Below the pieces are notes generated by a model. The model made no database searches, had not been told where the DNA came from, and saw only the letters and a list, made by a program, of their open reading frames with translations. DNA of 64,000 nt from Candidatus Bathyarchaeia archaeon (GTDB lineage Archaea > Thermoproteota > Bathyarchaeia > Bathyarchaeales > Bathycorpusculaceae), in NCBI GenBank assembly GCA_049512075.1, contig JBEKXL010000014.1, forward strand, positions 1 through 64,000, given 5' to 3'. Within the stretch, counting starts at the first letter, position 1; the number at the start of each line of letters is the position of its first letter. This document shows positions 107-58,319 of this stretch, one piece after another. A program made the position numbers and the translations under genes.

Positions 107-206
107 TAAAGGGACAAGGCAGCGCGCTCAATAAGAAAACTTGATGGACAAACAAAAAATTCTTCTTTCACGACCCTTTTTGTTCCAAATTCTGTCTTAG
201 CGCGCG

Positions 207-252
207 TGGTTGTTCCTAAATTGGTTTTAAGTGGTTTTTATTCTTCTTTTGG
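207..252. mobile_element. Solo MITE terminal inverted repeat
   Basis: TGGTTGTTCCTAAATTGGTTTTAAGTGGTTTTTATTCTTCTTTTGG closely matches the reverse complement of the MITE right ends at 21417 and 41057. It is preceded by AGCGCGCG (199-206). No partner end seen. Confidence 0.65.
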
Positions 253-412
253 GGTCTATGGGCGTAACAGCGCATAAACTATTAATCCAGACGCTAAGTC
301 AAAAATCGAAGCGCAGGTCCAAAAAATGACTGGGCGTTGGAATACTCGCTTCAATGTGTGAGATAAGTTTTTGAAGTAGAAAAAAGAAAATTATGAAAGA
401 GGGTTAGAAAAT

Positions 413-901
413 ATGAATAAAACAAAAGTTAGAGCAGAACCCGGCAAACAAGAGCTATTCATTACAAGGGAGTTTGACGCACCTCGAGAGCTAGTTTTTA
501 AAGCACACACAGACCCGAAGCTTTACACCCAGTGGATTGGACCACGAAGATTCACAACGACTCTTATGAAATTTGAACCGAGAAGCGGCGGCATGTAGCG
601 GTATGTTTCCAAAGATAAAGACGGCAACGAGTATGCATTTCACGGCGTGAATCATGAAGTTCTCGCACCTGAGCGACTAATTGACACCTTTGAATTTGAA
701 GGGTTACCTGAAAAAGGACACGTAAGCCTGGAGACGCTAAGACTTGAGGAATTGCCCGATGGAAGAACCAAGCTAACTATTCAAGTTGTTTTCCAGTCAA
801 TCGCTGACCGAGACGGAATGCTCCAAGGCGGGATGGAAGAAGGACTCAACGAATCACATGATCGCCTCGATGAACAATTGGAAAAAATGAAAAAAGGATA
901 A
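413..901 (+). pseudogene. SRPBCC/AHSA1-like (START superfamily) protein interrupted by an in-frame TAG
   Basis: ORFs 413-598 and 647-901 are in the same frame. TAG at 596-598 sits where Trp is expected (GGM*RYVSKD). Motifs [19 protein letters not shown] and GMEEG..ES..RLDE. Confidence 0.85.
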
Positions 902-988
902 GCGCGCGCCACTCTTGAGACCAAAACTATCCCGTCACCTCACAATTCTCACATTACATCTGGACAATGGGTCGCGCATGCTATGAAG

Positions 989-1288
989 TCAAAGAGGGAT
1001 AGGCATAGGCATGCCGTTTCTTGCTTCCTCAACTATCGGAAGCACTTGTTTCAGTTCTCTGAAGTACTTGAGCACGGTTATGCCTCTTGGAGTTATGGCG
1101 AACACTGTTCTGCTTTTTCCAACGGTTCTTTCCTCAATCAGGTTTTGCTTAGTCAGAAAGTCCAAGTATTCTTTCAGGACTTTGCAGTTGACGTTCGCTT
1201 TATACATTATATGCGTCAGTTTTAATGGTCCACGGCGGGATAGCACTTGGAGAATGTCTACATACATCTCGAGTTTGGAACGTCTCAT
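989..1288 (-). CDS. Winged-helix transcription regulator (archaeal HTH_45/COG3432 type)
   Basis: MRRSKLEMYVDIL...LTHIMYKANVN...YLDFL...ITPRG signature. Start placed at ATG 1288. Confidence 0.85.
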   Translation of the reverse strand: MRRSKLEMYVDILQVLSRRGPLKLTHIMYKANVNCKVLKEYLDFLTKQNLIEERTVGKSRTVFAITPRGITVLKYFRELKQVLPIVEEARNGMPMPIPL

Positions 1289-1985
1289 GATTCTACCCTT
1301 CGCATATGTACCTTCCACCAGTTGGAACAAGGAGTATAAACCGTTTATGAATCAGAAACTATGGTTCATATCTGCATATTGCCGCGCCAACACAAGTTTT
1401 CGTCGCATCTTTGCAACATGTTCCTGTTCATATTGAACCCTCGGACAACCTGAACTTGGAATAGTTATTGCAAATATGTATTTCAAAACCGTATTTTGCG
1501 CACGCTTCTGGCAATCTCTCTCGAAAAGCTTCAATTAGGTTCTGGGCTGCTCTTGCTTTGGGGGTTTCATTATACTTAGCCCGCGCTCTACCATGTACGA
1601 CATCATTCAAAGAATAAACGTTTCTGGAACATTCCTCTAGCTGCGCACTTGCCCGTTTTCCTTTATCGATCACTAGCGCACGCTAACGGGAACATGGAAA
1701 AAGAAGGGAGAAAGTGAAGATGACTTTAACCTTACTCTCTCCACCCTTTGAAGAATAACGTATTGACAGACTCTTTTTAACCTTCAACAGAAGCGTCTTT
1801 CTCATGGGCTTGAGAACTCACTTTTACAAGCGCGCGCTCACGGTTACCCTGAGACTCTTGAAAGCTCTCCTTCAAGCGAGAGCCCTAACGGGTCGGTGAA
1901 ATCAAGCGCTAAGAACCGGTGAGGACAGCATAGTGAGGGTAACCACGATGACGCCCACACCAACAAGACAGAGGAAGATGAAAAC

Positions 1986-2201: not shown

Positions 2202-2210
2202 GAGGCGCGA

Positions 2211-2480
2211 ATGCGTCCTAAATTAGTCTGCGAAGTACCGTACGCTTCTGGATCTGCCTGGTTTAGCGCGCGCGCTGAGAAAAAACTAGAACAGTTGAAG
2301 ATAGACGAACAAAAACGCATTGAACTAATGGCAGAATCCCTTGGCAGAACGCATGCACATTGGAATAGAAAAGGGCTACATCAGAACGGAGACGGAGCCA
2401 ACAGAAAGGCATACGTGTGTCCTAAGTGTGGCAACCGTTACGAGAGCGCGCGCTTATTTTGGCACTGCCCTGCACGATGA
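2211..2480 (+). CDS. Small hypothetical protein with a CxxC Zn-ribbon-like C-terminus
   Basis: YVCPKCGNRY motif; GAGG upstream of the start. Overlaps an opposite-strand ORF and contains two (GC)n tracts, so it may be degraded. Confidence 0.35.
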   Translation: MRPKLVCEVPYASGSAWFSARAEKKLEQLKIDEQKRIELMAESLGRTHAHWNRKGLHQNGDGANRKAYVCPKCGNRYESARLFWHCPAR

Positions 2481-2655: not shown

Positions 2656-3120
2656 CGTGGAACCTCCTGCCTTCCCGAGCTAACGAGCAGCCCAATTGTC
2701 AGGGTTCCTGTATTCAGTTCTTGGTCCTTCTTCCCATAATGCATCAAACAATTCCAAGAACTTCCTGCTGGACAGTTTCTGGCTCATTCCAACGCATCAC
2801 TTACAACAGTTCAGAGTCGCCTCAAAACATATATGGGCAACTGCTAAAATCAGAATATATCGAAAATCGACACACGCGTAGCGCGCACAGGTAAAGTTCT
2901 ATCTTTCTCTCTCTCATTCTTACGCCTACTCCCGCGCGCGTTTCGCAAGTGAGTTCCACAAGAGATCGTTGCGAGGAGGCTTTTCAACGTGAGTCTGTGG
3001 GCTTTTGCGTTCATTCCTTTCACGTTTTTGGTTTCGCTAAAGAGGAGAACAAACTGCCAACGTAACGGGGCTTTGATACGCGCGCTCTGACGTCACTGAT
3101 GGGGGAGGAGGTTAACGAAG

Positions 3121-3390: not shown

Positions 3391-3495
3391 ACTTTCGCAC
3401 ATTAAGGGCGATGAGAAAATGAAAAGCGATGCGTACATTCCTGCAGAAGGGGAGATTCTGGCAGGCTTCTGAGGTTCTTGTCGCAGGTTTATGTG

Positions 3496-3572: not shown

Positions 3573-3654
3573 TCTCTGGGGACTCACATGCTTTGAGTTT
3601 TGTGGCGGTATTTAAGTCTGCCCATAGACCCCGGGCGCGCTACCGTTTGACCGC

Positions 3655-7961: not shown

Positions 7962-8030
7962 GAGTCAGGACCGGCGGAAAGACACCCTGCAATTCAGAAG
8001 CGCGCGCGCAACGATGATTCAAGAACTGCT

Positions 8031-14219: not shown

Positions 14220-14455
14220 ACTCTTAAGGTCCTGTGTCAGCACAAACCGGGAAACTTCCAGAGCTGTCCTCGACCACGCCTGGAACCTCGCGCGCTCTAG
14301 CAGTCTGTACTTGCTGGGGCCTTTTTTTGGCACCTCGCGTGTTAACGCGGTGATGGAGCACACGCTGACTCGCTGCGAGGACGTGAGATGGATGGAAGGT
14401 CGCATAGGCAGACGTGGGTGGAACGAGGATGGTGGAAAAGGCGGGTGCGAAAGCG

Positions 14456-15082
14456 TCATTGATTCTTTTGAGGATGCGATTTCTTGGACTTTATGATTCC
14501 AATGATTGAGGTGCCGACAGCAACTGGGAGAAGCAGTTCTACTAGAAGCGTTCCGTCCTGAAATAATGCAAAGGGCGTCGTCTTGCTGCGTATGCTCGCC
14601 GTCATCGGAAAATAGTCCTGTGGAACTGATACTTCTGTTGTTTCGGACTGGAGTTTGATGTCCAACTTTATCGTTGTGGAAAACCGTGAGAATTGTTGAA
14701 CACTGGCTGCATCCTCTTTCTTCTCGTCAAGCACTTCAGGGCGTATTGCAGCTTCCCACATGCTTTGCTGTGTGTAGCTCTTGAGAGTCAGTCTCATGGC
14801 CGCGTCTGCTTCCCATGGGCGTTCCGCAATATCGTTCTTGGCCATCGGTACATTCATCTGGCTGTTTTGGGGATCCGCATAAGAAAGCGTTACAGAACTG
14901 ATGGGTTCTTGTGATGCCAGTACAACACTCAAAACCATGGTCCCATTGGCATCTGCGGGATCCGTAATGCTGATGCTGAGTATTCTAATCTTTTCGTTTT
15001 CTTGAGCGGATGCGGCATGGACTGACAACCCACACGCCAGCAGGATTGCAACAAAAAGGATAACCGACAATATCTTCTGCAT
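14456..15082 (-). CDS. Secreted hypothetical protein with C-terminal TM anchor
   Basis: MQKILSVILFVAILLAC...ASA signal peptide; LLVELLLPVAVGTSIIGII-KSKK tail. Confidence 0.7.
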   Translation of the reverse strand: MQKILSVILFVAILLACGLSVHAASAQENEKIRILSISITDPADANGTMVLSVVLASQEPISSVTLSYADPQNSQMNVPMAKNDIAERPWEADAAMRLTLKSYTQQSMWEAAIRPEVLDEKKEDAASVQQFSRFSTTIKLDIKLQSETTEVSVPQDYFPMTASIRSKTTPFALFQDGTLLVELLLPVAVGTSIIGIIKSKKSHPQKNQ

Positions 15083-15905
15083 TAGTGTCCCAAATGTACA
15101 GTACTGGTTACACCAGTTAAATCTTTCGCAGCTTCCCTGAGAATGCGTGCGGCAAGATATTCGCAAAGCCCAAAGATCCTCTGGCTTCCGAGCAGTAAAC
15201 CGCGACTTCAGGATCCCGGTGCTTTTCCAACATGGTAGTGCGGTGGATGTGGTTTGAAGCTCGTTCAAAGCGCTAAGATGGAGAGATGTCACTACTGTGG
15301 CAGAATGGTCCCGCATTTTGCGATGGACTTTCATGAGTATTATGAATGCAAAAAAACCAAGAGCGGGCACTAGAAAAATGTCTGATGATAAGTGAATGAA
15401 ACTGATTCTTAGTGGAAAGAAGTCTGATAATTAGTCAGCCATTGCCCCAAACAGTCTTCAGAACGGGGCTTCAATGAAAAAGAGGAAGATTCTTGGACTC
15501 AGGAAGGCGGGGAAAATTTGTTTAGCTAGTTCAATGCTCGCCGGACCAGCTTTTGGGGTGACATTTCAATAGTTTATTTAGCAAAGTGGACCTGTAGTCT
15601 GCCATTGGGCGCCGATTGTCTGCAAATCGAAAGGTCAAATCTTCCGATTTAGGCAGGTTCTGAACCCATCTGGGTTTAGGGACGGGCAGCCAAGTAGCAC
15701 TAAAGATTGAAGACTCCATCTACAAAAACCTCTACCGCGAACAAGGCCTGAAAAGCGTGCAAATCCTGGGATGCCCCCTCGCCAGCGCTGTAGCCTGCGC
15801 GATAGCAAAAGTCTCAGGCAAAACAGTAACCGTGAACCAAGTCAACATCTCTCCGAACGCGGAAACCGTGGAAATCACGTACACCCTCCAAGAGAGTTGA
15901 GCAAC

Positions 15906-16112
15906 ATGCACTTCCCACTCACACTGTCCGACATAAGCCTCTGGCTCGCCGCCACCGCAATCATACTCCTAATCACCTCCGAACTGCTGGCCTCCTCAAC
16001 AACATACTCCCGCAGCATCATACTTGAAAAGAAACGCCTCAGACTCATAGCCCTCGCACTCGGGGTAGGCTTCATGGCCACCGTCGTCATGCGCGTATTC
16101 CAACCCTTCTAA
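15906..16112 (+). CDS. Small two-TM membrane protein
   Basis: MHFPLTLSDISLWLAATAIILLITSELL...KKRLRLIALALG. Confidence 0.75.
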   Translation: MHFPLTLSDISLWLAATAIILLITSELLASSTTYSRSIILEKKRLRLIALALGVGFMATVVMRVFQPF

Positions 16113-16282
16113 CCCTTAGTCAAGTACCATCAGAGCCACAAAACGCGCGCCATTCTTAAGGCATATTTGTATTGTATCGTAGGCCCGGGGTAGGGGCCCG
16201 CCTGAACATACACGCCAAAAGCGCCCGCATAAACCATAAAGCTTATAAACGTAGAATTCCCTCTTTAAAGTGGGAATACAAA

Positions 16283-16501
16283 ATGGAAATCCAGATTGGC
16301 GATAAAGGAAGGATGACCCTTCCCCTCAAATTAAGAATGCTGCTAGGCATAAAAGAAGGCGACTGTTTAACCATTGAAATCGCAACCGGTGGCATATTCC
16401 TCAAGCCTAAAGGCGCCTCAGCAAAAGAAGTGTGGGGAGCAGCCAAGCTCAAGAAAGTTGAAATCGAAGAGATAGAAGAAGCACTCGGCACGGAATCTTA
16501 G
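16283..16501 (+). CDS. AbrB/MazE-type antitoxin (VapB-like)
   Basis: IGDKGRMTLPLKLRMLLGIKEGD; directly abuts the PIN gene. Confidence 0.85.
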   Translation: MEIQIGDKGRMTLPLKLRMLLGIKEGDCLTIEIATGGIFLKPKGASAKEVWGAAKLKKVEIEEIEEALGTES

Positions 16502-16903
16502 GTGCGCTTCGTAGACTCAAACGTCTTCGTGTATCACTTGGCCGCGGATCCCATTCATGGGCAAACAGCCAAGAACCTTATGGAAAAAATAGAAGCTGGT
16601 GAAAAGTCAGCCACATCGACGCTTGTAATCGCCCAAGTGTGCAGCTATCTCAAATGGAAAAGAATGCAAAACGTAATACCCCTATTCCTATCCTTCCTAA
16701 AAGGACTAACCACCCTACAAAAAATCGAAACCCACATGCTAGACTTCGAAGAAGCCAGAAGCATCCAATCACAACTCAACCTGCCATGGTCCATGTGGGA
16801 CGACATGGTAATCGCCGCACAGATGAAGAGGCTCAACCTAAAGGAAATCTACTCAAACGACGGTGACTTCGACAAAATTCCATGGATAAAACGAATCTTC
16901 TGA
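16502..16903 (+). CDS. vapC: PIN-domain toxin (VapC)
   Basis: FVDSNVFVY...WDDMVIAAQM...IYSNDGDFDKIPWIKRIF. Confidence 0.9.
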   Translation: MRFVDSNVFVYHLAADPIHGQTAKNLMEKIEAGEKSATSTLVIAQVCSYLKWKRMQNVIPLFLSFLKGLTTLQKIETHMLDFEEARSIQSQLNLPWSMWDDMVIAAQMKRLNLKEIYSNDGDFDKIPWIKRIF

Positions 16904-17145
16904 GACCAGAAACCCACAGCCCTCTCATCATGCTAACAGACAGTCTGGGATTCTGGTCTTAGCGCGCGCGAGTCTTGTGGATTGCCCCACGGCGCTGGAT
17001 TATTGCTCGGATCATGCAACTTCTAGAGTTTTTGTGTGGGCGTTTGAGCGGGCGTGCTGGCGGTTTGGGACGGAATATTTGGCTGGGATATATCTGGATG
17101 TTAACAAGTGTTATATGTTGTTTTGATGGACATGCATGATGAGGT

Positions 17146-17358
17146 TTGTTGGCTGTGCGTAGAGACTTGCGCATACGGAATCGACCTGTCCTCTTGCTGC
17201 TTCTGCCCGTTGTACTGGTTTTCTGGATGGTCGGCTGGGTTCTCTATTACACGGGTTCTGAGGGTGGCCGGCACAGAGCGGTATCTGATACTGTCAGGGA
17301 TGACGGGGTGGAGGTTGGCGTCGTGCTGCTGGAAGAAGAGACTGAGGTTAACAGCTAG
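17146..17358 (+). CDS. Small single-TM hypothetical protein
   Basis: RNRPVLLLLLPVVLVFWMVGWVLYYTG hydrophobic stretch, acidic tail, GAGG upstream. Confidence 0.55.
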   Translation: MLAVRRDLRIRNRPVLLLLLPVVLVFWMVGWVLYYTGSEGGRHRAVSDTVRDDGVEVGVVLLEEETEVNS

Positions 17359-17557
17359 TCTCGACGATTCTTGGATTCATGTGGCGCATGCGCTACGTTG
17401 CCCTGGGTGCTGAGCGCGCTCGCTGTGTTGAGAAGGCCGTGTCATAGCGCTTTTGGTGTTGCAAGGGTTGGGGTTTGTTGGTTCTGTTTCTTGGTTATCA
17501 ATTTTGGGTTCTTGGGGTTTAAGGTTTGAATGTGTTTGGTTTTTTTTGGAGTTGGGG

Positions 17558-20314: not shown

Positions 20315-20431
20315 ATGAACTGTTCTGATTCTCTTTTTCGTTGGCGCGCGCAATGTAAATCTGTCTGAGCTAGTTGGGGTTCAGTTTGATACCTTTTTCA
20401 GGCGGGTCTTGGGTAGGGGTGGAGCATTCTT

Positions 20432-20500: not shown

Positions 20501-21202
20501 TTGTTGTTGGTGCATCAAATGCTTGACAGTCGAAGCGAAGTGTTGGCCATCATCGCCGCCTTGAATGAAGAAGAGGGCATAAGGCCCACGCTTGAAGAGC
20601 TTCGGCAGTCCCTGCAGAACCCTCGGATACTGGTCGTTGATGGCAAAAGCACTGACCGAACAGTGGAAGTCGCAGAGGACTTGGGTGCTGAGGTGATTCA
20701 ACAGGAAGGCAAGGGAAAAGGCGATGCGATAGCTAAAGCGATAAGCCATGTTGATTCAAAAGTTGAATACGTTGTCTTCACAGATGCAGACTACACTTAT
20801 CCAGCGACGTTTGTTCCTAAGATGATAAGGATTCTTGAAGAAAATCCCAAGATTGGCATGGTGTGCGGCAACAGGTTTAACTCACGGTTCCAAATGGAGA
20901 AGATGCATAGCCTGTTCTATATGGGAAACAGGCTCCTGGCTTTCACACACAATATGCTGAACGGCGTTGCAATGCGAGATCCACTGACAGGTTTAAGAGT
21001 TGTACGCTGGAAAATCCTTAAGGACTGGGCACCTAAATCTAAGGGATTCGACATTGAAGTTGAGCTGAATCATCATGTTGAGAGAAAGGGCTACGGCATC
21101 ATGGAGATAGACATACCCTATCGACGACGACTCGGCGAGAAAAAGCTGAAACTGAAACACGGCCTCACAATAGCCAAAAGAATCATGTTAGAAACGACCT
21201 AG
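20501..21202 (+). CDS. GT2 glycosyltransferase (Dol-P-sugar synthase-like), paralog 1
   Basis: AALNEEEGI, VVDGKSTDRT, GKGDAI, TDADYTYP, DPLTGLR, GFDIEVE, YRRRLGEKKL. Confidence 0.92.
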   Translation: MLLVHQMLDSRSEVLAIIAALNEEEGIRPTLEELRQSLQNPRILVVDGKSTDRTVEVAEDLGAEVIQQEGKGKGDAIAKAISHVDSKVEYVVFTDADYTYPATFVPKMIRILEENPKIGMVCGNRFNSRFQMEKMHSLFYMGNRLLAFTHNMLNGVAMRDPLTGLRVVRWKILKDWAPKSKGFDIEVELNHHVERKGYGIMEIDIPYRRRLGEKKLKLKHGLTIAKRIMLETT

Positions 21203-21208
21203 CGCGCT

Positions 21209-21417
21209 GGCTTGTCCCTGAAATGGTTAAAAATGGTTTTTATTCCTTTTTGGGAAGTTTTGGTATGGGAAAACCCTGATTGCTGCAGGATTTTTCGAAA
21301 CTCCTGTGATTTGACGTCCGTGAACGCAGCTAACATTCGCCGTTAAAGAAGCCTAAATTGGACGCAAAAGGGCAAAAGAAGAATAAGGACCATTTTACAC
21401 CAATTTCGGGACAGGCC
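21209..21417. mobile_element. MITE, 209 bp, about 43-bp imperfect TIRs, 8-bp flanking duplication AGCGCGCT
   Basis: Left end GGCTTGTCCCTGAAATGGTTAAAAATGGTTTTTATTC versus reverse-complemented right end GGCCTGTCCCGAAATTGGTGTAAAATGGTCCTTATTC. AGCGCGCT at 21201-21208 and 21418-21425. Confidence 0.85.
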
Positions 21418-21653
21418 AGCGCGCTATTCAATACCTAAGAAACGTTCCATGACAAAGTGTCGTGGCGTGGGCTAATCATAGATTTTGCGTGTTTTTTGAT
21501 TTCTATTTGTGTCCGTGGAATATTGCTTAAATAGGCGCTTCTTTGAGTGATTGTTGGATAATATGTGTCTTAGGAACTGTGGCCGTGATTTTGTTGATTT
21601 CGTGCTTCTTTCTTGCAGGATAGTAATATTGCCATCTCTATGGGTTTGCGAAA

Positions 21654-23276: not shown

Positions 23277-24130
23277 CAATACAGACAGATGCAAATTTGT
23301 GGCGACATCAGGAGGTCCTGTAGTCGAAAGGAGTCTCAACTGCGATCGGTTTTCTTATGCGTTTTCCTGTTCTCCTGGGATCGCGTAACCTCGGAAAGCG
23401 CGCGCGTATTAAAGTGTTTTTTCATTCTTTCATCTCCTGGTCTCCGAGTCATGTAAATCAAGCGCATTCCCAAAGCTGACAATTGAGAATTTGTCGGTGG
23501 TGGAAGACTGATGCCGTAACAAGCTTCAGCCACGTTTCGGGTTTGCACTTCATCATCATTCCGCCGAAGTCTTTTACAGTGTCTGGTTCAACTGATAATG
23601 GTATTTGAAAAGCCTTCTTTGGCTGAGTGTCAAAGGTTCTTTGCAGAACCAATGAGATCGACTATGAATTGGTCGCCCAGTCGCCATCGCATGTTCGCGA
23701 AGTGCTGGTTTATGTATGAAGAGGTCTTTGCTGATAACCCAAATAGGCTTCTCAAAAAGGGAATAGAGATGCCTTTTGGAGAAAATTGGATAAATCAGAA
23801 CGAACCCACAGAAGCCAACTCTTTCATTCATCTATGGCATATGCTGAGGTGACACTATCTGTGATAGGCATTGGACTTGATAACGAGAATGCAGCGTCGG
23901 TCATTACTTGCTTCAATTATGTCCTTTCAGCAGGCTGAGGCCATGTGAAAGCAGAGTTGTCCCTTGGTTGGGTTTTTGAGTGTGATTCCGTTTTCCTGCA
24001 AGACCGAAACACTCTCGTTCAATGGAGGATTCCTGACAATGGGTCAAAAGATTTGTACACGCAAAGGTTATTGTCCAAAAACATAGATTTAAATTATCGT
24101 TCACCAATGATATTTCCTGTCTAGAAGGGG

Positions 24131-25705
24131 ATGGGGAAGATGGATGTTCGCAACTGCATTAATGATAGAGAGGACAGGCCGTGCTGTTCAAACACAGCTT
24201 CTGTGTTGCATGCGAATCAAAAGAGAAGGAGCATAAGATTGAACGCGCAAGTGTTCATAGTTTTCTTAGTTGCGTTTTTGGCCTTTACTCTGCTTGTTCC
24301 GCTTCAGCCCTCTATTGTGCCGTTCGTTTATGCGTCAAGCAATGGCTCACATTGGGGAGTTAACTATTCAAGTGACAACTGGCAATACAACACGGACGAT
24401 GCCATTCTAAAACGCGACTTTCTGCTCTTTAATAACAGCGGTATTGACATCATCAGTGTGATGTTGACTTGGAGCGCGATTGAACCATTTCCAGGAGTGT
24501 TCAATACAGCTTTTCTAAATAGAATAATACATCTGTGTGCCATTGCGAATGCCTACGGGATAGATGTGATGATGGATTTCCATACTTTAAGCTACGATAA
24601 CAGTTACACTATCCCCTCTTGGGTGTTTCCGCAACGATTGGCAACTGTCGTATTAAATCCTGAGATTCGGAACTCCTGGCTCAATTATCAACTCTATGTC
24701 ATCAATTATTTTTCCGGAATCAAAAATCTGCACAGCTGGCAGATAATGAATGAACCTCTAATAACGGGACACGGCGAAACGCAGCAGGGTTTTGTTGATC
24801 TGTGGACAGATGAAGTTGCCCTTTTCCGAGCCCACTCAGATTTGCCTATTTCGTTACGTTTTGGATGCTGGAGTTTCAATGCCTATTGGAAGAATTATTC
24901 CAAGATCTACGATCTGTTTGACTATATGAGTTATAATTGGTATCCTGCCAAGGGGGAAACTTGCCTCAGAAGCGCAGTTGACCTCGCAAATAGTCATGGA
25001 TTGCAGCCTCTTATAACAGAGTACGGTTTGGCAGACTGGAACGATACCGATCAAGATGCCAGTTACGTGTATCAGATTAACCTTTTCAAATCGATGGGCA
25101 TCAATTTCGGGTTGGCTTGGCAGTACGGGGATTTTGATGGAGGCGCAGGTTATAGTCTTTACAACATGACTGGAAATTGTGTTCGCCCTGCGTTCTATAG
25201 GATTGCGCAAGCCAACGATGTGCAAGGAGTCTACGTGCTTGAAATAACTTTGGCAAAAACAATTATTGAACAAGGGTATTGCACAGATGTTGAAGTAACG
25301 GTTCTCAACGAGTGTGCTTCACCAGAAAGTTTCCTGCTTGACGTGTACGCGAATTCTACGCTAGTTGATATGAGAAACGAAACGGTTCAAAGCGGCGTTT
25401 CTACAGTCCTGCATTTCACATGTAACATGACAGTCCCTTGCGGAAAATATACTATAAATGTGGTTATTGAGCCTCTTCCGGGTCAGGCAAATGTCGCTTA
25501 CAACCACTACACTGGCAGCAACATAACAGTGACTGTTAAAGGTGACCTCAATGGAGACTTCACGGCCAATCTGGTAGATTTAACGATGCTGGCACGAGCG
25601 TTCGGGTCCAAGCCAGGCAATGCGAACTGGAACCCCAATGCGGACATAAACAACAATGGTGAAGTGGACCTCCCGGACTTGGCCACATTAGCGCGCGCGT
25701 TATAG
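24131..25705 (+). CDS. Secreted clan GH-A glycoside hydrolase (GH5/GH42-like) + CARDB/Ig + dockerin-like domain
   Basis: TM/signal segment; WSAIEP; WQIMNEP (acid/base); ITEYG (nucleophile); GDLNGDFTANLVD...NPNADINNNGEVDLPD. Confidence 0.82.
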   Translation: MGKMDVRNCINDREDRPCCSNTASVLHANQKRRSIRLNAQVFIVFLVAFLAFTLLVPLQPSIVPFVYASSNGSHWGVNYSSDNWQYNTDDAILKRDFLLFNNSGIDIISVMLTWSAIEPFPGVFNTAFLNRIIHLCAIANAYGIDVMMDFHTLSYDNSYTIPSWVFPQRLATVVLNPEIRNSWLNYQLYVINYFSGIKNLHSWQIMNEPLITGHGETQQGFVDLWTDEVALFRAHSDLPISLRFGCWSFNAYWKNYSKIYDLFDYMSYNWYPAKGETCLRSAVDLANSHGLQPLITEYGLADWNDTDQDASYVYQINLFKSMGINFGLAWQYGDFDGGAGYSLYNMTGNCVRPAFYRIAQANDVQGVYVLEITLAKTIIEQGYCTDVEVTVLNECASPESFLLDVYANSTLVDMRNETVQSGVSTVLHFTCNMTVPCGKYTINVVIEPLPGQANVAYNHYTGSNITVTVKGDLNGDFTANLVDLTMLARAFGSKPGNANWNPNADINNNGEVDLPDLATLARAL

Positions 25706-39896: not shown

Positions 39897-40595
39897 ATGA
39901 AGTTGATTCATTTTGCAATCGTCCTTCTAACTATCAACCTCTGCCTACTTAGCTGTGTGAACTTTGGGTTTTCTGCTCCAGCTGATGAAACTCTTTACTT
40001 TCAAACTTATACGAGCATCCTCCCAAACGGCCTTGAGCTTCAAGCCATGAATAAAAGTATACAAAACCCTGCCCAACAAGCAAATTATAGCAGCGCCAAC
40101 CGCGGTTTTATTTCGCAGCCATTGGCTGAAGACTTCATTTTTCAAACGGTAAACGTTACTGTCTACCATGACGCCGTTCCATCCGGCCCTGGAAATTTTA
40201 CAATGTATGCTACCCTCGATGCTGCCAATGCCAGCGGCGACGCGTACTGGTTCTCTGATCAGTACGGAACGCAGTTAGCACCAGGTTCAAGGGTGGATTC
40301 TGTTCTTATTAATGTTGCAGTTCAGCTTTTTGAGGGAGACAGCATTAGTGTCTATGTGGGTCCTATAGACAATGGAAATGACATTGGTCTAGATATGTAC
40401 TGGGGGAACTCCACCTATCCAAGCAGCATTTCATATGCTGGAACAGCATACTACAACTACATCCCCGAATTTCCATCAACACTACTATTATTCATCATAA
40501 TTGCTGACACATCTCTGGCCTTGATAGTGTGCAAGAGTCATGCAAAAAAACGACAAATCCAAGCGCGCATGCGTGTTCCTAAAATGACTTTATGA
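39897..40595 (+). CDS. Secreted protein with a PEF-CTERM-like sorting tail
   Basis: MKLIHFAIVLL signal peptide; YIPEFPSTLLLFII...KK tail. Confidence 0.72.
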   Translation: MKLIHFAIVLLTINLCLLSCVNFGFSAPADETLYFQTYTSILPNGLELQAMNKSIQNPAQQANYSSANRGFISQPLAEDFIFQTVNVTVYHDAVPSGPGNFTMYATLDAANASGDAYWFSDQYGTQLAPGSRVDSVLINVAVQLFEGDSISVYVGPIDNGNDIGLDMYWGNSTYPSSISYAGTAYYNYIPEFPSTLLLFIIIADTSLALIVCKSHAKKRQIQARMRVPKMTL

Positions 40596-40859
40596 AAGAC
40601 GACCTGCATATATACTGCCTGGGCTGGCTAGTCCGTCTTTGACCATGGTCTGTGCGACCGGTAAAATGACTGGACGTTGCCCGTGAGCTGCTAAAGTAGT
40701 GGGTTTCTCGCCCGGATGAGTGATTGCAGCCTAATGCCAGCCTGAAAGAATGGAGGTCGAATGGAGAATCAGGGGAGGTGTGGCAAAAAGCTTAACTCTA
40801 CTGCTTCGCATTGGATTGTAGGTTGGCATTGGGTAGGCTTGGGGGCGCCAGGTTCGTGC

Positions 40860-41057
40860 AGCGTCTTTCATGAGTGGTTAAAAATGGTATTTATTCTTTT
40901 TAGGGCTTTGGAGGCAGTTTTGAGGTGCACATCTGTTTTTGACCTTCTTGCACTGTCCGTCTCAACACAGCCAAGACCTACTATCAAGCAGTCCAAATCA
41001 AACGCAGATAGGCAAAAGAAGAATAAAAACCATTTTAGACCAATTTCGGAACAAGCA
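40860..41057. mobile_element. Degenerate second MITE copy
   Basis: TGGTTAAAAATGGTATTTATTC on the left and GGCAAAAGAAGAATAAAAACCATTTTAGACCAATTTCGGAACAAGC on the right match 21209-21417; followed by TGCGCGCC. Confidence 0.75.
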
Positions 41058-41481
41058 TGCGCGCCGTTGAGTGGGCAAAGCGAACCTTTCTCCCTAGCTT
41101 ACATCCTTACTGAGACTTCAATCACATAGCTGCCGAGTTGTAACGCATGCTTCAATCTGCTAGAGAGATCCTTTGCAAACCACGGAAGCTTTTGCGAAGA
41201 ACGCGCGCTGCATTGAACTTGCTCGGTACATAGTCATTTTTTCCTTTGATTGGAGTAGGATGGGTCAAGGAAGATGAAGTCAACATTCTTTTCCACGATC
41301 CCATTCAGGATGTCGCTTTTATGAATCTTAAAAAAAGCTCATCCTTTTTTAGCCATTGCTGGGTCAATCTGTTTCGGGTCAATGAGAAAACTCGTTTGTT
41401 CTTGTTTTGAATGGTGGATGCTAAGATGCTACCCCATTTGAGAAACCTTAGGTGGAGAAAAAGGAGGAAGCTTTGCGCTCG

Positions 41482-42345: not shown

Positions 42346-42733
42346 GGCATTTCTCCAACCGAGGTCTCGGTAACGAGAAGCCGTTTCTTAAGGGTTTTTG
42401 TGAATCAATGTTTGTCTATTTGTAAATTCTGCTTCACCAGAAGAGACAACACATGCTTGGGGGGAATATCCTAACTATCAATGACAAGTTTTCATTTGGA
42501 CCTTTTCCCTCAACATCTTTGCCTAGAACCTTCATTTCTCTTAACAGCAGGCGCGCGCACTTCAATTTGTTACGTTTTATGTTTCTTTCAACATTCTGAG
42601 AGGTGCTTCAAAGAGTCTTACTGTTACGTTTTGGCTTGTAAAAGAAATATGGGAGAGCGCTCAGCTGAGTGCGAGCTCATCCTAGGTTCCCTTGCAGTTG
42701 GATTGGACTGATTGTCCGTCTTTGCACTTGTCG

Positions 42734-44128: not shown

Positions 44129-44446
44129 TTCGTTCTCCACCGACTTCTCGATCTTTACTTTCTGATTTCGAATATTAGCGCGCGCTATATTTATGTTCTT
44201 CCGAAACCTGTAATATTCCCAATTCTTGATAAAGCGGGCTGGTAGAACGCGCGAAATTTTGATTGATGAACTCGGAAGAAAACTCACTGCCCGTCTATTG
44301 TTACAAAATCTCCTTAAGGGCCTTCTTGGCCGGGCAGAGAGAGTGTCATTTGTCACGAACGGCTTAGCGCGCGCTTAGCACGTACTTCATTGGACTGTGC
44401 TTAGATTGGTATCTCGCATTAAGAAAAGTGCGTGCGCGCGCGTCTA

Positions 44447-54792: not shown

Positions 54793-54905
54793 GTTTGTTT
54801 CACCATCCTATCCTATACAGTTATGCGTATTTAAGCTTTGCCGTTAAACCGTAAAGCTTATATCTGGTGTTGTATATACAGTAATACGGCAATACGGTGA
54901 TAGAA

Positions 54906-56054
54906 ATGGCAACATCACTCACAACCACAAGAGAAGAACGCGGTGAAACAATCGCCAAACTCTCTAACCAAATACAGAGAGCAGATGAGAACTTTTACAC
55001 GGTCAAATCTCAAAGTGGAAACGGAAAATACGCAGTAACTAAGGTTGACGATGAATGGCTGTGCGAGTGTCCTGATAACAAATACCGAAAAGTAAAATGT
55101 AAACACATTTTTGCAGTTGAGTTTTCCAAATCATTCAGAGCAGAAGTAGCAGTAACCAGAGTGATTCGAGAAGTTAATGTTAATGTCTGCAAGTTCTGTG
55201 GTTCAGAACGCATAGTCAAGAACGCTGTAAGACGCAACTTGAATGGACATATTCAGAAGTACAAGTGCAAGGTTTGTGGGCGACAGTTTTCGATAAACTT
55301 GGGTTTTGAAAAGGTGAAAGCTACACCGCAAATAGTTACTTCTGCAATGCAACTCTATTTCACAGGAGAATCGTTAAGAAATGTACAGAAGTTCTTGAAG
55401 CTTCAAGGCGTGACAGTTGAACATACAACCGTTCTGCGCTGGATAAGAAAATACGTGAAACTGATGAACAGTTACCTAGAACAGATTCAGCCTAATGTTT
55501 CTGATACTTGGAGAGCAGACGAACTTTACGTAAAAATCAAGGGCGATCTCAAATATCTATTCGCAGTCATGGATGACGAAACAAGGTTCTGGATAGCTCA
55601 AGAGGTAGCCGAAACAAAAGATCAGCATGACGCTAGAACCCTATTCTCCAAAGCTAAATATCTAATGGGCAAGGCACCAAAAACGATAGTGACAGATGGA
55701 TTGAGAACGTATTCAAGGGCGAGCCAAGAAGTCTATCCCTTAGCAGATCATGTGAAGCACATTCGATTGCAGGGTGACATGAACAACAACAAGATGGAAA
55801 GGATGAATGGTGAAGTCAGAGATCGTGAGAAGGTTATGCGCGGATTAAAGAAGGTTGATACGCCAATTCTCAAGGGCTACCAAATCTTTCACAACTATAT
55901 CAGACCACATGAAAGCCTAGAAGGAAAAACTCCGAGCGAGGTTTGTGGAATAATAGTACAAGGGCAAAACAAGTGGATAACTTTAATACAAAATGCAGTA
56001 AAACAGAATAGGAGTGCATCATCCGACATGCAACACGAAGGAGTGTCATCCTAA
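54906..56054 (+). CDS. IS6-family DDE transposase with N-terminal SWIM and IS1-like Zn-ribbon domains
   Basis: CECPD...CKH (SWIM); CKFC...YKCKVC; WRADELYVKI..YLFAVMD, VTDG, NNKMER, HNYIRPH. Confidence 0.92.
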   Translation: MATSLTTTREERGETIAKLSNQIQRADENFYTVKSQSGNGKYAVTKVDDEWLCECPDNKYRKVKCKHIFAVEFSKSFRAEVAVTRVIREVNVNVCKFCGSERIVKNAVRRNLNGHIQKYKCKVCGRQFSINLGFEKVKATPQIVTSAMQLYFTGESLRNVQKFLKLQGVTVEHTTVLRWIRKYVKLMNSYLEQIQPNVSDTWRADELYVKIKGDLKYLFAVMDDETRFWIAQEVAETKDQHDARTLFSKAKYLMGKAPKTIVTDGLRTYSRASQEVYPLADHVKHIRLQGDMNNNKMERMNGEVRDREKVMRGLKKVDTPILKGYQIFHNYIRPHESLEGKTPSEVCGIIVQGQNKWITLIQNAVKQNRSASSDMQHEGVSS

Positions 56055-56292
56055 AATGCACCAGAACCGTCGCGCGCGCCAAAACAAAAGGTGTACGCGA
56101 GTTAGTAGGCGGGGAAGCGCGCGCTGAACGGGTGACCTATAGCGATTCCTACTCCAAAATTCAGAAAAGTTGGGGTTGGATCTTTCGACAGACTGACCTT
56201 GTCAGTGTTTTCCAGGGTCGTTCGTTTGGGTATCATCAAGGATTCGAGGTGAGAAGTAGATCCATTCTTCTCACTCTTTGATTTCCGAACGG

Positions 56293-57273
56293 TTAGGGAC
56301 CGTTGTTCGCTTTGGCCACTTCGTAGAAGGCAGGTCTTGGTTGTCCCGTGGACGGGTTTCGAACGTTGTAGTGACGACTGTCGACCAGTGTTCCGTACTG
56401 ACAGATCAGAGCGGTATCTATTCCTCTCGCTTTAAACATCGAAATTTGGCTTACAACAGAGGCTCTTTGCGTTTCATCGTTTGACGAGTCTGCACCGTAC
56501 TCAGTTATCTCCATGCTCTTTTGGTGGCTTTTTGCAGCGCTGACGAAAGCGTCGAGAGACGCTACCGTTTGATACGCGGGATACCAGTTTGACGCCAAAT
56601 AGTCGCATATCTGGTACAGTTGAGGCCAATTGCTCCAGTTGTGTGCTGTGAATGAATAAGCGCCAAACCTTATCGTGACAGGCTTGCTTGTCAAGGCCTT
56701 TACTGCAGCGGCGGTTTCGACGAAGAGCGCTCGATAACTTGTCTGCAAGGAGGACGTGTCTGCCCACGGCTCGTTGAACAGCTGCCAGCTTTTGATGTTC
56801 GGAACTGCCGAAAGATACTGAACCACATGCTTCTCCATGTTGATCCACTGCGCTTTGGCAGTAGAGGTAGTGGCAACTTTGTCGAAAGTTCCAGAGAACC
56901 AATAAGGCAAACCATAGCGTTTGTAGCTTCCGCAGCCCGAGTGAAAATCGATGTCCACCAGTAACCCGTATTCATTGGCGATCAAGCACAATTTCTTCAC
57001 TCTTGCAAGAAAGGCATCGTCATAGGATGATGATGACCTCGGCTGCACTTTGTACCAATGCAACCAGAGACAAATCAAGGTAATGTTGTTTTGTTTGAAG
57101 CGTGCGAAGTCACTTCTCAGATGAGTTTCGGTGTCCGAATAGCTCCAGCCTGACGAGCTATAGTCAACGCCGTATCTTTGAACGGTAGTCAAAGCTTTGA
57201 CTGGAGACATAAACGACATCAGCGGGACAGTCAATGCCAAAGCAACTAGTAGCAGCGTTAAGCTTTTTTTCAC
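56293..57273 (-). CDS. Secreted clan GH-A hydrolase (GH5/GH42-like)
   Basis: Signal peptide; LHWYKVQP; WQLFNEP; ITEYG. Paralog of 38900-39817. Confidence 0.82.
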   Translation of the reverse strand: MKKSLTLLLVALALTVPLMSFMSPVKALTTVQRYGVDYSSSGWSYSDTETHLRSDFARFKQNNITLICLWLHWYKVQPRSSSSYDDAFLARVKKLCLIANEYGLLVDIDFHSGCGSYKRYGLPYWFSGTFDKVATTSTAKAQWINMEKHVVQYLSAVPNIKSWQLFNEPWADTSSLQTSYRALFVETAAAVKALTSKPVTIRFGAYSFTAHNWSNWPQLYQICDYLASNWYPAYQTVASLDAFVSAAKSHQKSMEITEYGADSSNDETQRASVVSQISMFKARGIDTALICQYGTLVDSRHYNVRNPSTGQPRPAFYEVAKANNGP

Positions 57274-58319
57274 TTTTCCATCTCCATTTGGTTTTCTGAG
57301 GAGTTATCGAAAACGAGCCTTAATTGCATTTTTGAAAAGCAGTTTTTGACTGTTTGTCAAGTATCTGGCGCAAGAAAAACAGTGTCATTTTGAATCGAAT
57401 GATAAACTGCCCGCTCAAAGTCAAGCCATTCGATGAAAAGCAATGTGAAAAACTTTCGTTTCTGGCTCGTGCAAACCAAGAATGCACAGCTTTTTCCGCC
57501 AATTCGCGCGCGCGTATAATGTGCACGCGGGCCGTGTTGAAAGTAGTGGAAGATAACTCCATAAACCTATACGACCTAACGCGCGCTAAGGCCACTATAT
57601 AGCTGAGCTTTTTGCAAAGAGCACTTGACTATTTGCTTAACTGCACTTGTCAAGAACCCTTAAGGCTTCCTCACTAGCACTATCAAGTGGTAATCAAATT
57701 GCGAAAACTACCCTTCATGGCGCGCTTGTTCGTCCTGCCCATTGGGATTATGTTAGGGATTATAGGCTGGGGCCTTTCCTTTACTGAGGAACAAAAAGAT
57801 CAAACGCACAGACGTTGCCTCAACAGTCGTTAGCACGCCATCACAACGAATATGGCGCTTTTTTCTGGAAAATTCCACACGGCGAGGTCTAGGACCCTGT
57901 TTTGCTCGCCAGCGCTCGCGCGCGCCTTTTGGAACTGGTATTTTCATGCAAAAGACAAAGACAGACTTCTCAAACCAGAGAATAAAGAGGAGCTTCCACA
58001 GGATCCAGATGCTCCAAAATGCAATTATCATGCTTTTTCAGGAGAACATGGTATTGCAGCAGAGAGAAGATTCCAAAAGAAGTCTGTCTTCAGACTTAAA
58101 GGAAGTTCGGCTAAAATTGCCTTCCAAGACGTATCATGGAGAAACGTCTAATAGAACAAGCCAGACAAGAAAATCGAAAGTATTCCGGCAGTAGCAGAAG
58201 CAGAAATTGCAATCCACGTGATCCAGGCAAAAGATGGACAGCCCCAGATGTATGGAAAGAAGACACTTGATCATAACCTTTAGATTATCTACGTGATAAC
58301 ATCAAAGCGCGCCAAGGGG

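Follow-up and report, generated by a model that had tools for sequence, protein, structure and literature searches.

Short alternating G/C palindromes in Bathyarchaeia and their link to an IS5/IS1182-like transposon family

Introduction

The window, a stretch of 64,000 nucleotides (GC content 46.5%) from the 2.73-Mb genome of a peat archaeon of the Bathyarchaeia (G000), is interspersed with short, perfectly alternating runs of G and C. A sequence-only reading took these tracts for a dedicated chromosomal signal bounding exchangeable gene modules and knew of no such motif in archaea; no published description was found in the open-access literature either. The question raised by this locus is what produces the tracts and what they mark. 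Their link to a transposon family, described below, is new relative to the earlier reading. All compared genomes are MAGs.

Results

Abundance and form of the tracts

The window contains 45 perfectly alternating G/C runs of at least 6 bp, and exactly 18 of them, with lengths of 8-10 bp, reach at least 8 bp and begin at all 18 positions that had been listed (about 18 were claimed). Chance was rightly judged insufficient: the expectation for such runs per window has a mean of 0.9 and a maximum of 3 in 60 order-1 Markov simulations, and a mean of 2.2 and a maximum of 5 in order-3 simulations. The whole genome has 581 runs of at least 8 bp (284 of 8 bp, 186 of 9 bp, 105 of 10 bp and 6 longer), with a sharp cut-off at 10 bp. 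GCGCGCGC has 646 occurrences on each strand, where models of orders 0-2 predict about 28-32 and the order-3 model 45, and with this excess of about 20-fold it is the top 8-mer by z-score under both order-2 and order-3 models; one-off variants of the octamer are 1.3-2.9-fold enriched. The exact GCGCGCGC (n=250) is preferred in phase to CGCGCGCG (n=34), and the flanks favour A at -1 (in 66%) and T at +1 (in 64%), so that the consensus is TAGCGCGCGCTA, a 12-bp palindrome, as the sequence-only reading had it. Hairpin symmetry was looked for outside the tract core and none was found. The enrichment is no assembly artefact, since it likewise appears in four further members of the genus and in one genome of another genus, and since contigs from independent peat runs also contain the same stretch.

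Position relative to genes

Crude ORF calls (longest ORFs of at least 80 aa, 82% coverage, made without a gene finder) put 430 of the 581 runs outside ORFs and 143 within them, with 8 at an ORF edge, and tracts are 14-fold denser outside (0.90 per kb) than inside (0.064 per kb), in agreement with the earlier view that they are mostly intergenic or at gene ends. Only two sites of the window touch ORFs: the GCGCGCGCG tract at 25691..25699, inside the final five codons of a dockerin-domain ORF (24131-25705), and the GCGCGCGC tract at 44178..44185, in AT-rich DNA of the upstream extension of a VWA ORF (42734-44356, minus strand), about 50 nt upstream of the first in-frame ATG, which is codon 77 of the frame's translation. 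Solo GCGCGCGC tracts lie at 902..909 (outside any ORF of at least 100 aa), 1830..1837 (within 1437-3654, a stretch without such an ORF), 2446..2453, 20344..20351, 44367..44374 (with one minus-strand gene on either side) and 56117..56124 (in a convergent intergenic region), a solo (GC)5 tract at 2266..2275 and a solo GCGCGCGCG tract at 23398..23406, past the ORF 21654-23276. The GCGCGCGCG tract at 44434..44442 is right past the stop of the ORF 44447-45889 (minus strand), the CGCGCGCGC tract at 56071..56079 is 17 bp past the stop of an IS6/IS240-type transposase ORF (54897-56054), and the CGCGCGCGCG tract at 57505..57514 is in a 1-kb intergenic region (57274-58319).

A palindromic 12-bp consensus that is intergenic, is contained in about 13% of the intergenic regions and in some copies lies in AT-rich, promoter-like DNA could be the operator of a global dimeric transcription factor, a promoter element or a terminator. 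Such a regulatory role is very unlikely, because tracts are about as dense in tandem as in convergent and divergent spacers (0.91, 1.16 and 0.76 per kb, respectively), no preferred or fixed distance to gene starts or stops was found and the core has no surrounding hairpin symmetry; the tracts are also poorly conserved between species and occur on the deletion junctions of broken genes.

The transposon family and its ends

The tracts are linked with an insertion sequence of IS5/IS1182-like type and with the MITEs derived from it. When the 40-nt flanks of all G/C runs were clustered, families of 86, 17, 9 and fewer members were obtained, each beginning directly after GCGCGC, and the layout of the element is TA-GCGCGC-[TIR..TIR]-GCGCGC-TA. 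The TIR pattern, whose background rate is 0.4%, matches at 231 termini, and 43 paired elements of 119-2436 bp were found, 38 of them with G/C runs of at least 5 bp at both sides; 27 of these 38 are 6+6 by manual count of the listing. The autonomous copies C15:7516 and C32:7469 encode transposases with DUF772 and DDE_Tnp_1 domains; the protein is about 331 aa long, in an IS of about 1.05-1.13 kb. Its best partial NCBIfam score is with the IS1182 model, under the curated cut-offs for both IS1182 and IS5. Public data contain 1036 relatives at E≤1e-10, which their sources label, where a label is given, "transposase" or "IS5 family transposase", and NCBI records name Bathyarchaeota.

The window begins in the right end of a TIR element (1..127), cut by the contig start, whose terminal GCGCGC is at 122-127, and another element terminus, at 200..253, consists of GCGCGCG and then a GTTCCTAAAT-type TIR. 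One MITE, at 21202..21424, consists of a 211-bp core with TIRs between two GCGCGC tips (21202-21207 and 21419-21424) and is flanked by TA on either side; another, at 40563..41064, has a 490-bp core and GCGCGC tips at 40563-40568 and 41059-41064, is multi-copy (24 repeat hits) and has high summed depth in contigs of peat runs. In contigs of four runs no empty-site joint was found at the window MITE, and excision was not observed directly. The GCGCGCGC tract at 42551..42558 and the CGCGCGCGC tract at 57917..57925 adjoin repeated sequences, which are at 42551-42664 and begin at 57925, respectively.

In the whole genome 94 of the 581 tracts adjoin a repeat boundary, where 1.4% would do so at random; just 3 tracts fall within a repeat alignment. 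Some observations count against a transposon origin: 84% of the tracts are without an adjacent repeat, and tip lengths vary among closely related copies (6+6, 7+7, 6+8, 8+8). TA flanks 27% of solo-tract sides, against 20/38 and 22/38 for elements (manual count), so solo tracts are not simply vacant copies of occupied sites. Genes of Y1 transposases are present, but not consistently adjacent to tracts.

Comparison with the sister species

Of 254 ends of homology blocks shared with the sister species (G002), 77 are no more than 3 bp from a tract in one or other genome, against 1.3-1.8% of random intergenic positions per genome. The conserved blocks of the window are broken at 8005, 14288 and 17423, every one at a tract. 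The (GC)5 tract at 8000..8009, past the stop of the ORF 5910-7961, is split in G002 by a 424-bp TIR element with GCGCGC on each side, which belongs to the same family as the element at the contig start, and the counterpart of the CGCGCGCG tract at 2933..2940 is a 7-bp tract with an element terminus directly after it. The 3.1-kb segment 14289-17419, missing from the orthologous locus, starts with a CGCGCGC tract (14289..14295) and ends with a GCGCGC tract (17414..17419), and homology restarts at 17423; in place of the variable part (14296..17413) G002 has 205 bp of unrelated sequence. This part includes genes for a MazE/AbrB-like protein (16172-16501) and a PIN protein (16502-16903), and the pair has tracts on either side, at 16144-16150 and 16962-16970, the second of which is a GCGCGCGCG tract (16962..16970) 59 bp past the PIN gene stop. 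The proposal that tracts bound exchangeable modules therefore stands in part: the insertion sites, the block ends and the swapped segment speak for it, but tracts are also found in broken genes.

Among 35 G000 tracts placed in G002, 13 are retained, 2 hold an element, 6 have lost 1-2 bp, 7 have 1-3 substitutions, 3 are absent as clean indels of 10-13 bp, and in 4 cases G002 has 150-1800 bp of unique sequence instead, two of the four being parts of genes. Overall, tracts are gained and lost as 6-13 bp indels. At one deletion-junction tract G002 has an intact 362-aa AIR-synthase-like ORF, and at another its unique stretch spans a pair of overlapping ORFs, whose helicase-type domains are HBB and a weak DEAD_2 match that stays below the cut-off; tracts on deletion junctions in genes that are intact in G002 imply that tracts arise de novo at break junctions. 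Conservation of tracts between the species is no better than neutral. With 13 of 35 kept, no fixed distance to genes and tracts on deletion junctions, there is no evidence for the dedicated chromosomal signal or protein-binding site that was first proposed.

In the filled and empty pairs at window 8000 and at C33:10339, which like all the element polymorphisms are unpolarised by an outgroup, the empty site is (GC)5 and G002 carries the element within the tract. The tip sums compared with the empty length are 6+6 vs 10, 6+10 vs 10, 8+6 vs 8 and 9+7 vs 8, from which neither a simple length rule nor a fixed 4-bp duplication is derivable; the tips may belong to the element, may be a duplicated target or may be the two halves of a palindromic one.

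In 3 of the 35 orthologous pairs the two tracts differ in length by precisely a single GC unit (8 vs 6 or 9 vs 7 bp), as would be expected of ordinary (GC)n microsatellites growing by replication slippage. This explanation, already disfavoured, is extremely improbable: the length distribution is not geometric (core counts of 680 for (GC)3, 451 for (GC)4, 93 for (GC)5 and 3 for (GC)6, the (GC)3-core runs being at most in modest excess and not above the number of element-flanking termini), one phase is strongly preferred, the flanks show a preference too, and whole tracts appear as indels in sequence without a prior repeat.

Distribution among genomes

The element and the motif are found together in the genus and in a single further one, and most relatives have few copies of either, which agrees with the view of the tracts as non-random and lineage-specific. 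The counts of the motif and of GCGCGC followed by the TIR are 646 and 99 in G000, 168 and 30 in G001, 460 and 41 in G002, 447 and 50 in G004, and 439 and 54 in G021 of another genus, whose transposase is 82% identical; most other relatives have 0-14 motifs and no such terminus. G003, with 253 motifs and 6 termini, has scarce termini, which counts against the transposon reading. The tips travel with the element also in motif-poor genomes: ISs end in GCGCGC in G020 (6 motifs genome-wide) and in G005 (5 motifs, transposase 33% identical), and an IS in G029 has the variant CGTGC at both ends, in inverted and not direct orientation. Among 80 loci from other Bathyarchaeia MAGs, 37 have an exact inverted-repeat seed and 33 of these read as IS termini, all 33 with alternating G/C outermost on at least one end; in the 448 kb that flank the loci there are 89 tracts, every one of them 8, 9 or 10 bp long.

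G018, of another genus (40% GC), has 46 tracts of at least 8 bp in 460 kb, most of them outside ORFs and only one adjoined by a repeat. A profile search found no transposase of the IS5/IS1182-like family there, and no recurrent tract flanks were found; G030 has the motif without a detectable element on a smaller scale. Either the element was lost or is unassembled in G018, or the motif is independent of it. A host process, such as a break repair that fills junctions with alternating G/C or a chromosomal site of a host protein, could make or use the tracts, with IS1182-like elements only homing in and the (GC)3 tips being target halves. These two genomes, the large share of tracts without a neighbouring repeat and the deletion-junction tracts without a visible element are consistent with it, as are the symmetric tips (6+6, 7+7, 8+8), which fit mid-point insertion into palindromes of differing length, palindromes being described as targets of IS1182-family elements (PMC5678879). 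We regard such a process as possible but unlikely, because no candidate host factor follows the distribution of the motif: among the six motif-rich genomes, searches for the m5C methylase family found no member in five (G000, G001, G003, G004 and G021), N6/N4 methylases are present in 38 of 41 genomes, and Ku is uncorrelated with the motif, being present in G000, G002, G004 and three motif-poor genomes and not found in G021 or G018. In addition, the tips are kept on ISs in genomes with only 3-6 tracts, the motif is abundant where the element is abundant and rare in most of the family, and tracts are neither conserved above neutral nor fixed relative to genes.

The tract is also like HIP1 (GCGATCGC) of cyanobacteria, for which accumulation by methylation-linked mutation or repair bias is proposed (PMC4390886, PMC5861425): both are hyperabundant, lineage-specific octameric palindromes with palindromic extensions, and the enriched one-off variants agree with a similar build-up here. 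It is nonetheless highly improbable that the tracts arose in this way, as they are strongly intergenic and transposon-linked, their lengths are cut off at 10 bp, the species differ by whole-tract indels or deletion junctions and not by stepwise substitutions toward the motif, and the cognate C5-cytosine methylase was not found in the five genomes named above.

Discussion

The family resembles several known systems. Members of the IS5 family have palindromic 4-bp targets, IS5 itself inserting at YTAR. The Bathyarchaeial element is similar in its labelled relatives, in the combination of Pfam DUF772 and DDE_Tnp_1 and in its palindromic flanks, and differs in that no fixed 4-bp duplication follows from the filled and empty pairs and its context reaches 10-12 bp. 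IS1272, a member of the IS1182 family, uses palindromes as insertion sites and makes no target duplication (PMC5678879). In likeness to that system, the Bathyarchaeial transposase is a DDE_Tnp_1-type DDE enzyme with its best partial score to IS1182, and its insertions are at palindromes with no ordinary target duplication outside them; in contrast to it, the protein scores under the curated cut-offs, target and tip are one fixed sequence, (GC)3-5, in place of assorted stem-loops, the tracts stay on both sides and are not replaced, and the archaeal host genome has hundreds of empty tracts.

REP/BIME units with their RAYT transposases are present as hundreds of short, intergenic palindromic units per genome, and some IS families insert into them. 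The Bathyarchaeial tracts are comparable in number, position and symmetry, but they are only 8-10 bp long, have no stem-loop and are not consistently adjacent to Y1 transposase genes. Cut-and-paste transposons of the Tc1/mariner type leave excision footprints, which are, like the tracts, short constant sequences that match element termini, are scattered without the element and appear as small insertions; the Bathyarchaeial scar, of putative excision origin, differs in being itself a perfect palindrome. No prokaryote is known to have excision footprints in hundreds of copies.

We hold with moderate confidence that the (GC)4-5 palindromes are part of the life cycle of a Bathyarchaeial IS5/IS1182-like DDE transposon family and its MITE and cargo-carrying derivatives; on the best reading, the tracts look like landing sites and scars of transposons, acting as hot spots for rearrangement. 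Each element carries, or sits between, (GC)3 tips and would insert into an existing GC tract, which may thus be re-used as a target, or into another palindrome. Its loss would leave behind a short GC tract, of 8 bp or less often 10 bp, these lengths probably being set by the chemistry of cutting and joining. The leftover tract may then be where the next element lands, and may offer the microhomology through which segments are deleted or replaced. Tracts would accumulate where they are tolerated, in intergenic DNA and dead genes, would erode through point mutation and would come to mark the borders of variable segments. For the biology of these archaea, the tracts mark places where genome segments are gained, lost or swapped.

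Abundance, length and sequence of the tracts

Runs of alternating G and C of at least 6 bp occur 45 times in the window as maximal runs, and exactly 18 of these are 8-10 bp long, with starts at all the positions that an earlier sequence-only reading had listed for its 18 tracts. The excess over chance claimed there is also real, since windows simulated with an order-1 Markov model contain a mean of 0.9 runs of at least 8 bp (maximum 3 in 60 simulations), and order-3 windows a mean of 2.2 (maximum 5). An assembly artefact is excluded, as tracts are found in independent genomes and the stretch itself is present in peat metagenome runs. In sequence, the tracts are of the classic Z-prone type.

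The whole genome (G000; 2.73 Mb in 86 contigs, 47.5% GC) contains 581 runs of at least 8 bp, hereafter tracts, and its run-length distribution is odd: 669 runs of 6 bp are followed by 195 of 7 bp, 284 of 8 bp, 186 of 9 bp, 105 of 10 bp and 6 of 11 bp or more. Replication slippage, which accounts for a few one-unit length changes, fails to account for this distribution. The core has a strong phase, with 250 exact 8-mers of GCGCGCGC against 34 of CGCGCGCG in G000, and it is flanked by A at -1 and by T at +1 in about two thirds of cases each, with a weaker T/A preference one position outward. The octamer GCGCGCGC has 646 copies per strand, where Markov models of orders 0-2 predict about 30, and is the most deviant 8-mer of G000, which bears out the enrichment genome-wide. 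Octamer variants with an internal transition show 2.5-2.7-fold enrichment in this genome and those with a transversion 1.3-2.2-fold, which fits decay of older copies.

Position relative to genes

Greedy longest ORFs of at least 80 aa, which cover 82% of the sequence, were used in place of a gene finder. Against these crude ORFs, 430 of the 581 tracts are outside, 143 inside and 8 on an edge, and the proposed intergenic location is upheld by a density of 0.90 tracts per kb outside them versus 0.064 per kb inside. Tandem, convergent and divergent spacers have 0.91, 1.16 and 0.76 tracts per kb, respectively. Tracts are regionally clustered (20-kb bins, mean 4.0, variance 9.7), and 87 genes have a tract in both flanking spacers versus 43.7 expected. 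A MITE bounded by two tracts was considered for the 86 tract pairs of G000 spaced at most 200 bp apart and is rejected, as the intervening sequences are mutually unrelated.

A role as regulatory site, such as operator, promoter or terminator, is disfavoured by poor conservation of the tracts between species and by the absence of any preferred distance to gene starts or stops in G000, where the distributions are broad and every spacer type is represented. Complementarity of the flanks past the core is at chance level from position 2 outward, which means that the tracts do not form the stem of any larger hairpin, and the hairpin or terminator reading is rejected because symmetry ends at the core. 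REP/BIME sequences differ in being imperfect stem-loop palindromes of 20-40 bp, a symmetry that the tracts lack. Five Y1_Tnp matches are found in G000 as candidates for RAYT proteins; of three loci checked, the first has nearby tracts, the second lacks them within 1.5 kb, and the third shows runs of 6-7 bp only.

An iterated palindrome drive like that of HIP1 would agree with an octameric palindrome present many-fold over expectation. It is disfavoured by the strong intergenic bias of a motif that is not spread throughout the genome, by tracts that change as indels, and by the distribution of the C5-cytosine methylase PF00145, which was not found in five of the six motif-rich genomes (G000, G001, G003, G004 and G021). 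N6/N4 methylases (PF01555) are found in 38 of 41 genomes and are uninformative on the motif.

The insertion sequence and its derivatives

The (GC)5 at 8000-8009 of the window is interrupted in the sister species, G002, by a 424-bp element that has terminal inverted repeats (TIRs) of about 35 bp and GCGCGC on each side. Clustering of the sequences that adjoin G/C runs in G000 yields families of 86, 17, 9 and fewer flanks, all starting right after GCGCGC. A terminus pattern with a background of 0.4% matches 231 run edges and gives 43 paired elements of 119-2436 bp; by manual count, 38 of the 43 are convincing, and 27 of the 38 are flanked by tips of 6+6 bp. The usual layout is TA-GCGCGC-element-GCGCGC-TA. 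The window holds MITEs of this family at 21202-21424 and 40563-41064, and element ends at 1-127 and 200-253.

Two copies of about 1.1 kb encode transposases with DUF772 and DDE_Tnp_1 domains, and the Pfam matches are PF01609 (4.4e-24 and 6e-17) and PF05598 (8.9e-14 and 5.6e-06). The DDE_Tnp_1 domain, the TIRs and the multiple copies, which include non-autonomous derivatives, are those of IS5/IS1182 elements. The highest partial NCBIfam scores are to IS1182 and IS5 models, at 143.4 bits for IS1182 (curated cut-off 270) and 104.4 bits for IS5_4 (cut-off 140), both from a scored ORF about 35 aa shorter than full-length relatives. Source records label the relatives "transposase" or "IS5 family transposase". 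A 900-bp TIR-bounded copy carries the gene of a 234-aa membrane protein, which has no Pfam match, in place of the transposase. It lies at C2:331-1242 in G000 and at C2:141277-142177 in G002, and because these loci differ it looks like a mobile cargo cassette.

TA flanks 20 of the 38 elements on the left and 22 on the right, about twice as often as solo tracts (27%). As a target duplication it is rejected, since the roughly 10 elements with TA on both sides agree with independent occurrence, and flanks other than TA in no case form direct repeats.

The window also contains a transposase of a different family (DDE_Tnp_IS240/IS6-like, with a SWIM zinc finger) at 54897-56054, which has two copies in the genome and is followed by two G/C tracts within 70 bp.

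Turnover of tracts between sister species

Both flanks of 35 G000 tracts can be placed in G002, where 13 tracts are kept, 2 have an element inside, 6 are shorter by 1-2 bp, 7 have 1-3 substitutions between near-identical flanks, 3 are absent as a clean indel of 10-13 bp, and 4 are represented by 150-1800 bp of unique sequence. The reverse comparison, with 26 G002 tracts placed in G000, is similar. Retention of 13 of 35 is about that expected for eight bases at 0.88-0.92 identity per base, so these placed tracts show no sign of purifying selection.

Two of the four long unique stretches belong to genes. In one case, 615 bp of a 362-aa AIR-synthase-like ORF that is intact in G002 are lost in G000; in the other, a helicase-like region (HBB, weak DEAD_2 matches) has lost 776 bp there. 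Each deletion has a tract at the junction. Conversely, a 223-aa ORF intact in G000 is deleted in G002, again with a tract at the junction. Tracts can thus form anew at a break junction although both borders lack one.

Four pairs of filled and empty alleles, which are unpolarised, have a GC tract in every empty allele, and at two sites, also unpolarised, an element is paired with (GC)5. The tips sum to no single rule against the empty tract (6+6 versus 10, 6+10 versus 10, 8+6 versus 8, and 9+7 versus 8 bp), and their lengths vary even among close element copies, so that the tips may be element-borne, a duplication or halves of a palindromic target. An empty site or excision joint of the MITE at 40563-41064 was not found in the contigs of four runs over 40001-60000, and no element of G000 or G002 could be placed by both flanks in the other genome or in paralogues. 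In one-flank tests homology usually stops at the element, which means that simple empty sites are seldom recoverable.

Homology breaks and exchangeable segments

The closest genome is that of the sister species, with about 91% identity in syntenic parts. Alignment of 0.8 Mb of G002 to G000 gives blocks (at least 400 bp, at least 80% identity) with 254 ends, and synteny is highly fragmented. As proposed from the sequence, breaks coincide with tracts: 77 of the 254 ends are within 3 bp of a run of at least 6 bp in either genome, and 54 within 3 bp of a run of at least 8 bp, a position shared by 1.3-1.8% of random intergenic positions per genome. In the window, blocks break at 8005, 14288 and 17423, with a tract at each, and the 3.1-kb segment at 14289-17419 is replaced by 205 bp in G002. 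Within this missing segment, a MazE/AbrB-like antitoxin gene is paired with a gene for a PIN-domain protein (16172-16903; a VapBC-type pair), and the pair is bracketed by further tracts, one at 16144 (22 bp upstream) and one at 16962 (59 bp downstream). Several junctions in G002 fuse blocks from separate G000 contigs exactly at a tract. Together with the block ends, the window breaks and the replaced segment, these junctions lend real support to the claim that tracts bound exchangeable segments.

Repeat boundaries adjoin 94 of the 581 tracts (random 1.4%), and 84% of tracts have no neighbouring repeat. Only 3 of the 581 lie within a repeat alignment; repeats therefore stop at tracts and do not contain them, and polarity based on paralogues yielded little for the same reason.

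Other features of the window

Homology to G002 begins exactly at the tRNA-Asn gene (3496-3572, minus strand), where G002 has 762 extra bp. The region upstream of it, 1-3495, has no ORF of at least 100 aa, dense repeats and nine G/C tracts, and looks like a decayed integration hot spot. It includes at 3115-3380 a separate multi-copy repeat without G/C tips, which has 37 matches in G000 and many in G001 and G002 and is built on ACATTACA, one of the most over-represented 8-mers (167 versus 45 expected). Two families of short interspersed repeats are common across the genus, one at 8035-8257, whose start is 26 bp beyond the (GC)5 of position 8000, and one at 13703-14254, after tRNA-Pro (13599-13676).

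Strand skew is very strong at 10000-14000 and 18000-20000, over the region of an NrdD-type gene, where GC skew reaches +0.43 and AT skew -0.49. The NrdD-type ORF is at 11279-13477, and a partial copy at 18621-19315 is 74-76% identical to the counterparts that this ORF has in G002 and G004. Large secreted-type proteins with dockerin, CARDB, FG-GAP, laminin-G and glycoside-hydrolase domains form a cluster (5910-7961, 24131-25705, 47023-52299 and 60256-63999) beside a polysaccharide synthesis block at 21654-37092, a region poorly conserved within the genus. The gene content of the window, which includes FrhB-type and NrdD proteins, DUF7347 regulators and the large dockerin/FG-GAP surface proteins, is consistent with an anaerobic archaeon.

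Lineage pattern of motif and element

The motif was counted in 40 relatives. G000 has 646 copies of the motif and 99 of GCGCGC joined to the TIR, and the other genomes of the genus have 168 and 30 (G001), 460 and 41 (G002), 253 and 6 (G003), and 447 and 50 (G004), respectively. G021, of another genus, has 439 and 54, and its transposase shares 82% identity with the G000 protein. Nearly all other relatives have 0-14 motifs and 0-2 GCGCGC-TIR joints; a few have 30-53 motif copies, the range for most of the family and order is 0-14, and G018, of another genus, has 227 copies of GCGCGCGC. GCGCGC-TIR counts follow motif counts across genomes.

GCGCGC-ended insertion sequences are also present in G020 despite only 6 motifs in 2.4 Mb, and in G005 despite 5 motifs, with a transposase that is 33% identical. 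In a third relative, G029, both ends of the insertion sequence have the variant CGTGC in inverted orientation, which is not what direct target duplication would give. The MAGs that contain relatives of the element are all Candidatus Bathyarchaeia/Bathyarchaeota, from peat, bog and soil. Among 80 loci from other Bathyarchaeia MAGs, 37 have an exact inverted-repeat seed and 33 of these seeds were judged to be termini of insertion sequences; in each of the 33, one end or both are bordered on the outside by alternating G/C, with tips of 6+6, 7+7 or 8+8 bp. The 448 kb flanking these other-MAG loci contain 89 tracts, of 8 (56), 9 (21) and 10 bp (12) and none longer.

Origin of the tracts

In a published case, IS1272, which belongs to the IS1182 family, uses palindromic stem-loops as insertion targets and does not duplicate them, and palindrome targeting is noted for other members of the family (PMC5678879). 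With this precedent, the tracts are most likely landing pads and remains of a Bathyarchaeial element family. Elements are seen to sit within GC tips, or would sit between them; their loss would leave a tract of 8 or, less often, 10 bp, and such tracts may serve again as targets. Identical perfect palindromes would then provide microhomology for deletions and segment replacement. More speculatively, cohesive GC overhangs at the donor site could reseal in or out of register, which would explain why 8 bp is far commoner than 10 bp, and 10 bp than 12 bp.

An origin of the tracts independent of the transposon is unlikely, and the main reason for still giving it some weight is found in two genomes that have tracts and no detectable element. 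In 460 kb examined of G018 (40% GC) there are 46 tracts of at least 8 bp, 33 of them outside long ORFs, with lengths of 8 bp (6), 9 bp (21), 10 bp (11) and 11-14 bp (8). A profile search of G018 did not find the family transposase, flanks are not recurrent, and 1 of the 46 tracts is at a repeat boundary; G030 is similar, at lower density. However, MAGs often lose copies of insertion sequences, and scars could outlive the element. It is rather less probable still that tracts are written into DNA breaks without a transposon and then act as universal joints. If this were true, any DNA between two tracts could be deleted, replaced or moved, the cassettes of the accessory genome would be set by a palindromic recombination signal of 8-10 bp, and the IS family would be one user of the signal and not its maker.

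A protein that could seal excision sites is Ku. Of 41 genomes, 6 contain it, namely the motif-rich G000, G002 and G004 and three motif-poor ones, and it was not found in G021 or G018; as its presence is uncorrelated with the motif, it is rejected as the determinant. The Ku homologue of G000 is encoded at C16:6054-6590 (PF02735, E 7.6e-41), and Ku is present in 1 of 14 control genomes (Bacillus subtilis).

Significance

Peat and sediments harbour abundant, uncultured Bathyarchaeia, and to our knowledge almost nothing is known of how the genomes of these archaea change. No description of the motif, or of insertion sequences or MITEs of Bathyarchaeia, was found in full-text searches of open-access literature. 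The kinds of components are already known, namely IS5/IS1182-like insertion sequences, MITEs and palindrome targeting. Their combination looks new, with a fixed (GC)n tip or target, hundreds of solo tracts that make up the top octamer, and deletions and homology breaks marked by them.

One octamer, the genome's most over-represented, marks about one fifth to one third of the alignment ends between sister species, as well as element insertions, small indels and deletions that destroy genes. Assemblies break at element copies owing to the motif, which could help to flag variable regions in MAGs from this lineage. Should the transposon reading be correct, it would extend the palindrome targeting of IS1182-type elements to archaea, with a defined target sequence. 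The family would then be a transposon of prokaryotes whose palindromic marks, recognisable and possibly re-used, number in the hundreds, and from these marks past mobility could be read and rearrangement hot spots could readily be mapped.
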